Below are positions 31,907 to 33,267 of a stretch of 35,867 nt of DNA, piece after piece. The position numbers and the translations under genes were made by a program. The first letter of the stretch is position 1. Every line of letters starts with the position of its first letter. The notes beneath the pieces are model-generated. The model saw only the letters and a program-made list of their open reading frames with translations, had not been told where the DNA came from and made no database searches. The DNA is taken from positions 1 to 35,867 of the IMG/VR virus record IMGVR_UViG_3300045988_113479, one strand, 5' to 3'. The DNA is from a virus.

Positions 31907-31959
31907 TTGCGTTGGGCGGCGGGGTGCCCTATACTGACTCATGTCACCGCCCCGGTGAC
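31907..31959 (+). promoter_or_regulatory. early cassette copy 5: promoter TTGCGT-17-TATACT plus GTCACCG/CGGTGAC hairpin, driving the surface-protein gene
   Basis: TTGCGT 31907-31912, TATACT 31930-31935, a 7-nt gap, stem 31943-31949/31953-31959 (hairpin identical to copy 2), GAAAGGA 31970-31976, ATG 31986. Confidence 0.65.
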
Positions 31960-31985
31960 CCTGCTCCTTGAAAGGACCAACTACT

Positions 31986-33224
31986 ATGAACACCAAGTAC
32001 GCGCTCGCGGGCCTCGGCCTCACCGTGGGCCTTGCCGTCGCAGCGGCGGCCCCTGCGCTCGCGGCCCCCACCAGCCCGGAGCCGATCAGCGCCCAGGTCA
32101 CGAAGGCCACGTCCGCGTCGCGCCAGACCACAAGCGAGGTGACCGTTGAGGGCACCTGGCAGACCCCGCGCCTGACCGTCGGCTCGACCCTGACCGTTGG
32201 CAGCATCGACGGTGGCTTTGCCTGGCGCGCTGGCTTTCCGTTCACCCTGGACGACGGCACCCGGATTGGTGAGTGCGTCGCCGACCAGGCGACCCTCACC
32301 TGCACGGTGACCGAGGTTCCCGAAGCGTGGGCGGCGAAGCAGGACGTGTCCGGCACGTTCCACGCCCGCGCCCAGCTCACCGATAAGGCCGTGGGCACCG
32401 AGTCCACCCGGATCACCCTGAACGGCGAGACGGTCCGCACCCTCGTGTGGGGCGATAAGGACGGCACCGGCACGTGCAGCAACGACTGCGCCAGCCCGGC
32501 GCACTACGAGTACGCCAAGCCGGAAACCCTGAAATACGGGTGGACCGATGCCAATGGGTCCATCGCCTGGGGCATCCAGTGGAAGGTGGAGCCGTCCACC
32601 GAGTACACGATCACCGATGAGACCAACGCCCTGCACGCGGCGGTGAAGTGCTCGACCGGCCCCACGTGGGACCCCAAGACGACGAGCTGGACGGACGGCA
32701 AGCTGGACGACGCGAAGCACACGCTGACCTTCACGCCCCCGGCGGGCGCGCTCGTGTGCGTGACCTTCCCGGATGCGACGAAGCCCGTCGAGGGCCAGAC
32801 GACCTACACGAACAAGGCGACGATCAACGGCCAGTCCTTCGAGGCGACCGCGACGATCAAGGCCAGCGGTGGCACGGACGGCGACGGCACCGTGAAGCCC
32901 ACTCCCGCGCCTGCGCCTACTCCGACGACTGAGCCGACTCCCGAGCCGACCCCCACCACCCCGGCCCCGAAGCCCACGCCCACCATGCCGACGGTGGACA
33001 AGACCCCGGAACCCAAGGTCACCTCCTCCTCCGCCCCGGTCCCCTCGCGTGCGACCCCGAAGCCCGAACCGAAGGCCGACGCGCAGCCCGCCCCCGCGCC
33101 TACGACGCGCCTCGCCCGGACCGGCGCGACCCTCGACGGCATCGGCGTTGCCCTCGTGCCCCTTCTGATCGGCGCGGCGCTCGTCCTCGGCGGTCACATC
33201 ATCGACCGCCGATTCACCAAGTAA
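31986..33224 (+). CDS. secreted LAXTG (LARTG) sortase-anchored cell-wall surface protein, adhesin-like
   Basis: Signal peptide MNTKYALAGLGLTVGLAVAAAAPALA. Beta-rich, Ig-like/MSCRAMM-like body. Pro/Thr-rich stalk. LARTG at 33111-33125, then hydrophobic ATLDGIGVALVPLLIGAALVLGG and a basic tail HIIDRRFTK. Confidence 0.85.
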   Translation: MNTKYALAGLGLTVGLAVAAAAPALAAPTSPEPISAQVTKATSASRQTTSEVTVEGTWQTPRLTVGSTLTVGSIDGGFAWRAGFPFTLDDGTRIGECVADQATLTCTVTEVPEAWAAKQDVSGTFHARAQLTDKAVGTESTRITLNGETVRTLVWGDKDGTGTCSNDCASPAHYEYAKPETLKYGWTDANGSIAWGIQWKVEPSTEYTITDETNALHAAVKCSTGPTWDPKTTSWTDGKLDDAKHTLTFTPPAGALVCVTFPDATKPVEGQTTYTNKATINGQSFEATATIKASGGTDGDGTVKPTPAPAPTPTTEPTPEPTPTTPAPKPTPTMPTVDKTPEPKVTSSSAPVPSRATPKPEPKADAQPAPAPTTRLARTGATLDGIGVALVPLLIGAALVLGGHIIDRRFTK

Positions 33225-33235
33225 CACCTCCGCCC

Positions 33236-33267
33236 GGTGGGGCCGCTGGACCATCGGCGGCCCCACC
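33236..33267 (+). terminator. GC hairpin (11-bp stem) after the surface-protein gene
   Basis: GGTGGGGCCGC 33236-33246 pairs with GCGGCCCCACC 33257-33267, followed by CCCTTGAAAGGACCCCATC-ATG. Confidence 0.55.

Follow-up and report, generated by a model that had tools for sequence, protein, structure and literature searches.

We describe an optional gene cassette in the early replication operon of a siphovirus, analysed over positions 1 to 35,867 of IMG/VR record IMGVR_UViG_3300045988_113479 (35,867 nucleotides (nt); hereafter the window). The window is a nearly complete, circularly permuted genome of ~36 kb with 66% GC. The gene in question (31986-33224, plus strand) encodes a protein of 412 amino acids (aa) that is predicted to be exported and anchored to the cell wall by a sortase, and whose body resembles the ligand-binding regions of wall-anchored bacterial adhesins. 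Our explanation as a whole, an optional early-operon cassette encoding a wall-anchored adhesin that changes the adhesion of the infected cell, is in our judgement rather likely, and its parts are held with different degrees of firmness.

The export and anchoring modules can be read directly in the protein. The N-terminus (MNTKYALAGLGLTVGLAVAAAAPALA, followed by AP) is signal-like, with a basic N-region, a hydrophobic stretch at approximately residues 5-28 and an AXA motif (A24-L25-A26) before the inferred cleavage site. Direct reading and hydropathy thus assign a putative Sec signal peptide to residues 1-26 (31986-32063), of which A26 is invariant in the family. Six Cys residues are conserved family-wide. 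The body is followed by a GGxDGDG motif and a disordered Pro/Thr stalk (residues 293-375, 32862-33110; predicted local distance difference test (pLDDT) <50), with 24 P and 16 T per 80 residues over residues 293-372. The C-terminus, LARTG-ATLDGIGVALVPLLIGAALVLGGHIID-RRFTK, combines an LAxTG motif (LARTG at 33111-33125), a hydrophobic span that is modelled by AlphaFold2 (AF2) as a helix at residues 390-410, and a basic tail, and has the composition of a cell-wall sorting signal (33111-33221). LA[RKQ]TG and a tail of exactly 32 residues are found in 120/120 close homologues (78 LARTG, 40 LAKTG and 2 LAQTG). The motifs of distant members are LAKTG, LAHTG, LARTG, LAITG, LAVTG and, in one, LPVTG. 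True family members measure ~400-500 aa, and the complete ones possess a signal peptide, a six-Cys body, a Pro/Thr/Ser stalk and LAxTG. LAXTG is the motif used by class E sortases, for which Actinomyces is one of the listed genera (PMC8225981); the homologues on Actinomyces chromosomes themselves bear LA[RH]TG. An earlier note on this DNA, made by a model from the letters alone, had proposed a signal peptide, a Pro/Thr stalk and a complete LARTG sorting signal. All three are borne out by the reading above, with LAxTG in the 120 close and in all complete distant homologues, and the display of the product on the wall of the infected cell, also claimed there, is supported to the extent that the protein is a predicted exported, sortase-type anchored protein.

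The body is confidently predicted to adopt a two-domain Ig (immunoglobulin)-like fold of the MSCRAMM/Cna type. In the AF2 model, built from a 30-sequence alignment, residues 31-292 form two beta domains with a pLDDT of ~90 and the stalk is disordered. The first Ig-like domain spans approximately residues 34-160 (32085-32465) and the second approximately residues 161-292 (32466-32861). The first 37 Foldseek matches in the PDB consist of 35 two-domain ligand-binding A-regions of wall-anchored adhesins and two structures of the BspA C-terminal domain, and no non-adhesin is among them. They include Cnm, CNA (also in its collagen complex), SdrE, ClfB, SdrG, FnBPA, Bbp, SdrC, UafA, Srr1/2, ClfA and Candida Als (E 3.4e-10 to ~1e-5, probability 1.0, TM-score 0.45-0.52 on the target). 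Both body domains of the predicted model align to N1N2 of CNA and to N2N3 of SdrG, ClfB and FnBPA, and the model thus presents two adjacent DEv-IgG domains. The MSCRAMM/Cna-type Ig-like body suggested in the earlier note is therefore supported by structure prediction and Foldseek (E 3e-10 to 1e-6 to MSCRAMMs). At the sequence level, the Pfam domain Big_8 (SDR-like Ig) is detected on the first domain of Actinomyces chromosomal homologues (26.8-28.1 bits versus a cutoff of 22.9) and in 12/30 family members at E<=0.01, the window protein having no significant match; Cna_B, SdrD_B and Collagen_bind are matched in none of the 30. A pilin was considered and rejected on the grounds of the LAxTG motif, the adhesin A-regions among the best folds and the weak matches to the pilins BcpA and EbpB.

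Two motifs are conserved from Actinomyces to TM7 (Saccharibacteria) to phages: (E/S)YT(I/V)xD in the second domain (residues 206-211, ~32601-32618) and GGxDGDG directly after it (residues 293-300, 32862-32885). The former resembles the TYTFTDYVD motif of MSCRAMMs. A latch or a metal-binding site is a possible role for these motifs.

The open reading frame (ORF) at 31986-33224 represents a genuine gene; it is subject to purifying selection but evolves faster than its neighbours. It begins with ATG after GAAAGGA, which agrees with the gene coordinates and Shine-Dalgarno sequence of the earlier note. A search of 5.8 billion proteins returned 1512 homologue matches, of which the best 120 are 74-100% identical; no frameshifts or stop codons were seen among the 120 close homologues, and the gene is intact in >100 sequence clusters with an invariant motif and tail length. 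The median pairwise ratio of nonsynonymous to synonymous substitution rates (dN/dS; 12 genomes) is 0.25, versus 0.10 for the SNF2 gene and 0.13 for the DUF2786 gene; within the protein it is 0.15 for the first and 0.27 for the second domain. The family is narrow: when 1.84 billion representatives were searched exhaustively without a profile, no more than 36 clusters emerged. Large repeat proteins that surfaced in this search (P0143, P0145, P0153 and P0155) were inspected and discarded as spurious repeat matches. The composition of the gene is not deviant (GC 0.70 versus 0.664 for the genome; GC at third codon positions 0.93 versus 0.86-0.89 in neighbours).

The boundaries of the cassette follow from close relatives, which were fetched via the SNF2 protein and in which neighbour genes were placed by tblastn. 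The adhesin gene is present in 15 of 18 informative relatives and absent at exactly the same site in the other three (L009, L018 and L024), whose SNF2 proteins are 95-97% identical; three further loci have too little upstream flank to judge presence or absence. Every one of the three empty sites keeps, unchanged, the elements upstream of the gene, all on the plus strand. These are a strong GC hairpin directly after the DUF2786 stop codon at 31875 (31881-31927, its loop holding the -35 box; z -6.1 for 31870-31990), a sigma-A-type promoter (31907-31935; TTGCGT at 31907-31912, 17 nt, TATACT at 31930-31935) and a 5' leader stem-loop at the inferred transcript start (GTCACCG-CCC-CGGTGAC, 31943-31959). 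In the empty sites the leader joins CCCTTGAAAGGACC (CCCCGAAAGGACC in L024), followed by the ATG of g69 (33287-33496), which with the SNF2 helicase gene (33493-34821) forms the start of the downstream operon (33287-34821, plus strand); the same promoter would drive this operon directly in the adhesin-less relatives. As these sites retain promoter and leader, the optional unit comprises a ribosome-binding site, the ORF and a trailing GC hairpin (33236-33267, 11-13 pairs, no T-run), which is found in all adhesin-bearing relatives and is missing from the empty sites. A 13-nt direct repeat, CCTTGAAAGGACC, lies in the Shine-Dalgarno region at the left boundary (31966-31978) and again as the ribosome-binding site of g69 (33269-33281). 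By this comparison the cassette occupies ~31966-33268 within the 5' leader of the early replication operon, flanked by the repeat, and the promoter is assigned to the g69-SNF2 operon, not to the cassette. Either insertion, or deletion via recombination between the repeats, would fit the polymorphism.

The earlier note had described an autonomous moron with its own promoter, 5' hairpin and downstream hairpin, inserted between the DUF2786 gene and the SNF2 operon in the replication module. The position is confirmed by gene order, and a survey of the insertion point, which the note had proposed, yields the presence/absence polymorphism of 15 versus 3, so the unit is optional. The promoter and 5' hairpin exist, although they are resident and remain in the empty sites, and autonomy in this respect does not hold. 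The downstream hairpin is present and linked to the cassette, but would not be a full stop, having no T-run and being followed by a promoterless g69.

The adhesin gene is probably co-transcribed with the early replication genes. The trailing hairpin is kept in every adhesin-bearing relative, and g69 starts 19 nt after it with no new promoter between them. The next cassette-type promoter copy lies beyond the polymerase gene, with a weaker promoter-like site inside the VapE-like gene. Full termination at 33236-33267 would cost the replication genes their only upstream cassette-type promoter, hence we infer partial attenuation or 3'-end stabilisation. Neither the promoter (-35 with a 3/6 match) nor the hairpin at 33236-33267 (no T-run) was called by a simple sigma-70/terminator scan. 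Copies of the promoter/leader element head replication-arm genes on the plus strand at 6290-6375, 6720-6805, 30615-30697 and 31905-31988; the four copies in the window, versus ~0.03-0.09 expected, are above chance. Their layout is TTGCAC (TTGCGT in the adhesin copy), 17 nt, GGGTGnnCTATACT, ~6-8 nt, the GTCACCG...CGGTGAC hairpin, GAAAGGAC and ATG; the promoter core can also be written TTGCAC-17-GGGTGnGCTATACT, the leader then ending in GAAAGGAC-ATG. They recall the promoter-stem-loop repeats of T4-type phages, which bound shuffled early genes, and may be expression signals and recombination sites both. The genes on either side of the cassette are themselves replaceable (seen, for instance, at L004 9733-9888 and L077 11317-11472): DUF2786 (31156-31875) is swapped for a 51-aa gene in some relatives, and g69 exists as two alleles of ~64% identity (MHKLHALE and MLNFHA) or is replaced by a 51-aa gene.

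The family recurs across three phage lineages, which we believe to be a new observation. Actinomyces phage xhp1 carries a 62%-identical homologue (LAKTG) in its early region, and the salivary Caudovirus D_HF4_2 a 48%-identical one; xhp1-like and D_HF4_2-like copies also occur in an isolate assembly and in a metagenome-assembled genome. Schaalia odontolytica XH001 harbours Xhp1 as an inducible prophage, and the phage binds the epibiont TM7x as well (PMC13578794, published in 2026). Lysogenic conversion, which the earlier note held not to apply obviously, is therefore relevant to the family. In the published accounts of xhp1 (PMC13578794), of LC001 and of the TM7 strains, no mention of the adhesin gene was found. 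The early region of the unrelated phage D_HF4_2 (L002 1800-5900) likewise consists of repeated units, in which a hairpin (CCTATAnCC...GGnTATAGGCTTT) is combined with a TATAATGAGAA promoter and a ribosome-binding site; one hairpin copy (5845-5894) stands directly before the adhesin gene, with no promoter copy between them. A metagenomic protein of 396 aa (P0126) matches the xhp1 protein in its signal peptide and C-terminal tail but has a body only ~38% identical, which suggests that the ligand-binding body may be exchanged between conserved export and anchor modules. Distant homologues (26-35%) are encoded on the chromosomes of A. israelii, A. massiliensis, A. gerencseriae, A. oricola, A. timonensis, A. 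denticolens and A. howellii. In the one context examined, that of A. howellii (LR134350, L003 10001-11296), the homologue lies immediately after rpoA-rplQ and not in a prophage.

The nearest non-phage relatives of the family belong to TM7 epibionts. Homologues of the same architecture, with bodies 40-49% identical and with KKLA[IV]TG signals, are encoded in ten oral TM7 assemblies (loci L056-L065, e.g. L064 9881-11305 and L058 9890-11194). Among the carriers are three cultured Nanosynbacter HMT-352 strains (TM7-053, TM7-075 and TM7-076), metagenome-assembled genomes and a chromosome of 702 kb. Schaalia supports the growth of HMT-352 strains, which differ from one another in host range (PMC9040727). 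At the two loci examined the gene sits between rplA and rplJ, a core context. Its GC of 0.60, versus 0.44 for the flanks, indicates transfer from a high-GC donor, and the identity between alleles of a single TM7 species is only 54-65%. A neighbour-joining tree of the body, which has no bootstrap support, joins the TM7 and phage clades as sisters and leaves the clade of Actinomyces chromosomal genes outside. Mis-binning of phage contigs was rejected as a source of the TM7 matches in view of the 44% GC, the ribosomal-protein neighbours and contigs of up to 702 kb. The copies of A. howellii and TM7 alike adjoin ribosomal-protein clusters, and in one complete TM7 chromosome (OX335598, L065 9878-10372) a 164-aa ORF is followed by frame breaks, reflecting a pseudogene or sequencing errors. 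We believe the sister relation to a horizontally acquired, hypervariable TM7 surface-protein gene to be new.

In the mechanism that we propose, the adhesin gene would be transcribed early, together with the SNF2, VapE and PolA genes. The product would be exported by Sec, oxidised to three disulfides, cut between T and G of LARTG by the housekeeping class E sortase of the host and linked to peptidoglycan. The infected cell would then display a new adhesin on an 80-residue stalk and bind a ligand in the cleft between the two domains. Export, disulfides, T/G cleavage and wall attachment are deduced from what is established about Sec export, oxidative folding in actinobacteria and sortase E. The purpose would be to alter what the infected cell sticks to, keeping the cell in an aggregated, surface-attached community near new hosts; such changed adhesion is the most likely purpose and at the same time the least secure step of the reasoning. 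Schaalia is susceptible to phage LC001 when grown on a surface and resistant when planktonic (PMC11032452); Xhp1 is lytic on cells grown on surfaces (PMC13578794). Given this sensitivity, retention in a biofilm would place progeny beside susceptible hosts. The recurrence of the gene in a temperate Schaalia phage and a third lineage implies a benefit during infection itself.

Several observations weigh against an anchored adhesin that benefits the phage in this way. A lytic cycle limits the time for sortase anchoring and for any benefit, three natural relatives manage without the gene, and the hairpin at 33236-33267 may lower the expression of essential downstream genes, a cost that is left unexplained. 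The Foldseek TM-scores are moderate and the root-mean-square deviations are 6-11 A, as expected for two flexibly hinged domains, for which ligand binding by dock-lock-latch or by collagen hug may be envisaged. Pfam, NCBIfam and PHROGs gave nothing significant for the phage protein itself, and a profile search of PDB sequences returned only low-complexity matches of Pro-rich linker or stalk-like type. Of the four Pfam models by which the earlier note had proposed to check the protein, Collagen_bind, Cna_B and SdrD_B do not match it even at E<=10, and the same is true of Gram_pos_anchor and of the NCBIfam LPXTG anchor model, which mainly represent LPXTG proteins of Firmicutes, so that their failure to match an LAxTG signal counts for little.

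Superinfection exclusion or protection of progeny would use the same display differently: the anchored protein would mask the phage's own receptor, e.g. a wall polysaccharide, like T5 Llp or Ltp-type proteins, keeping further phages out and saving released progeny from loss on debris. This fits with the inferred early, promoter-proximal expression, with a C-domain that evolves faster, as expected in an arms race, and with the retention of the gene in three unrelated phage lineages of the same host group, temperate and apparently virulent; the phage receptor known from Schaalia requires a wall polysaccharide cluster (PMC11032452). Yet known exclusion proteins are small lipoproteins or membrane proteins rather than stalked MSCRAMM-type adhesins, the 80-residue stalk holds the domains away from the wall, and the chromosomal homologues of TM7 and Actinomyces have no phage to exclude. 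We regard exclusion as unlikely. A three-way conflict, in which phage and TM7 proteins bind the same host ligand and the phage copy blocks or recruits TM7, appears more doubtful. It draws on the TM7 homologues described above, with their 40-49% identity, shared architecture, LA[IV]TG motifs, sister position in the unsupported neighbour-joining tree and foreign GC (0.60 versus 0.44), and on their presence in cultured HMT-352 strains growing on Schaalia (PMC9040727). Xhp1 binds TM7x (PMC13578794), and TM7 association renders hosts phage-resistant (PMC11032452). However, this evidence is entirely correlative, TM7x, the strain of the binding studies, is not among the genomes matched, and a shared ligand could equally be the salivary pellicle or another oral surface.

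We attach very little probability to either of two further explanations. Ig-like domains are common on phage particles, and weak Foldseek matches to tail proteins were obtained in BFVD (E >1e-4, TM <0.3), as would suit a virion decoration or receptor-binding protein; a virion protein is nonetheless hard to reconcile with a signal peptide and complete sorting signal, a position in the replication arm, whose strand is opposite to that of the structural genes, the optional nature of the gene among otherwise near-identical phages, and cellular homologues in non-phage contexts. A passenger gene in decay, of no present use to the phage, could account for the three close relatives without it and for a dN/dS above that of the neighbours. 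Against this, the gene is intact in >100 sequence clusters with motif and tail length invariant, its dN/dS of 0.25 is well below 1, and it has been retained independently in xhp1-like and D_HF4_2-like phages.

Compared with known systems, the proposed wall-anchored adhesin stands closest in structure to the MSCRAMMs (CNA, Cnm, SdrG, ClfA/B, FnBPA and Bbp), which share the signal peptide, tandem Ig-like domains, flexible stalk or repeats and sorting signal; they are its best structural matches, and Big_8 is found on the first domain of its chromosomal homologues. Nevertheless, no sequence similarity can be detected, with 9-19% identity in the structure-based alignments, and the phage protein differs from MSCRAMMs in having LAxTG instead of LPXTG, three conserved Cys pairs and no B-repeats or Cna_B, and in being carried by a phage. 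SasX/SesI, an LPXTG protein of the Staphylococcus phiSPbeta-like prophage that alters colonisation and aggregation of its carrier, is likewise a phage-borne gene product anchored by sortase. Its prophage carriage has been noted (PMC7047976). SasX is expressed from a resident prophage by lysogenic conversion, whereas here no integrase was found and the gene lies in an early replication operon. With lambda-type morons the cassette shares the position of an extra gene between conserved neighbours, presence or absence among close relatives and a trailing hairpin. It differs from them in using the promoter of the resident operon, in a hairpin without a T-run, in a GC near that of the genome (0.70 versus 0.66) and in belonging to a lineage for which no prophage state is known; by the promoter, it falls outside the moron definition. 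LAXTG proteins of Actinomyces, such as GspA of A. oris, which relies on the housekeeping SrtA, offer the same LAxTG signal in an actinobacterial host. A possibly glycosylated linker is a further point in common. The Actinomyces chromosomal homologues are only 26-35% identical, and none is characterised in the literature searched. Finally, the same protein cluster has been auto-labelled 'clumping factor' or 'collagen adhesion protein' by third parties in records of uncultured Caudoviricetes, and the only strong structural match in BFVD is the 'clumping factor' of another uncultured siphovirus. Given these automated labels, the fold assignment itself is not new. No analysis of anchoring, cassette structure, distribution or TM7 relatives was found for these records in the literature searched, and we believe the precise make-up of the cassette, set within an early replication operon of a phage that apparently does not integrate, to be described here for the first time.

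Phage-borne sortase-anchored surface proteins are known mainly as staphylococcal prophage cargo; here, such a gene is found in the early operon of a very common oral phage. The nearest relatives outside phages belong to cultured TM7 strains that live on the same hosts; there the gene has a fixed place in the chromosome, foreign composition and divergent alleles. The family thus offers a candidate for two questions, namely which surface proteins bring TM7 into contact with its host, and how genes pass between phages, hosts and epibionts and how the three compete at the cell surface. Of these findings, the link to TM7 most deserves following up. It is conceivable, though we consider it rather improbable, that the phage adhesin and the TM7 HMT-352 homologues form one horizontally exchanged family recognising the Schaalia/Actinomyces surface. 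If so, the TM7 copy would act as the adhesin of close contact, might determine the host range of episymbiosis at the level of strains, and would stem from a high-GC donor, plausibly via phages like Xhp1 that adsorb to both partners. The phage copy on infected cells would then mask the same ligand against epibionts or rival phages, or compete for it. Metagenomes hold natural phage variants with and without the cassette, and Schaalia and TM7 are genetically manipulable (PMC11032452, PMC11623550).

The remainder of the genome is organised in two arms. The structural arm runs on the minus strand from ~28.7 kb down to 9.1 kb and encodes the large terminase (TerL), portal, major head protein, tape measure, tail proteins and endolysin. 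The replication arm runs on the plus strand from ~29.8 kb via the window end to 9.0 kb, with VRR-NUC, DUF2786, SNF2, VapE-like, DUF2800 nuclease, Enc34-type single-stranded DNA-binding and family A polymerase genes. The window ends (34814-35866 and 1-1392) each hold one half of a 792-aa VapE-like primase/helicase gene; relatives have this gene intact, hence the circular permutation. Nearly all contigs with the adhesin gene measure 35-36 kb. Pfam and PHROGs were applied to most sizeable ORFs of both arms, and no integrase, repressor or partition gene was found, in accordance with the earlier note, which had seen neither integrase nor repressor; the lineage is probably virulent. A 70,250-bp scaffold of twice the genome length (L078, ERZ28635859) gave no evidence of integration: it begins at the adhesin gene and is most simply two genome copies joined during assembly. 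Megablast of the adhesin region gave no match to cultured phages and the best identity of TerL is 46%, to Cutibacterium phage terminases, which together indicate an uncultured lineage. Its host is probably an oral Actinomyces or Schaalia. The two arms are separated by a divergent intergenic region (29280-29821) with a near-perfect palindrome at 29690-29728 (19-nt arms) and with promoter-like and terminator-like consensus matches of the scan; a regulatory, origin or cos function is possible.

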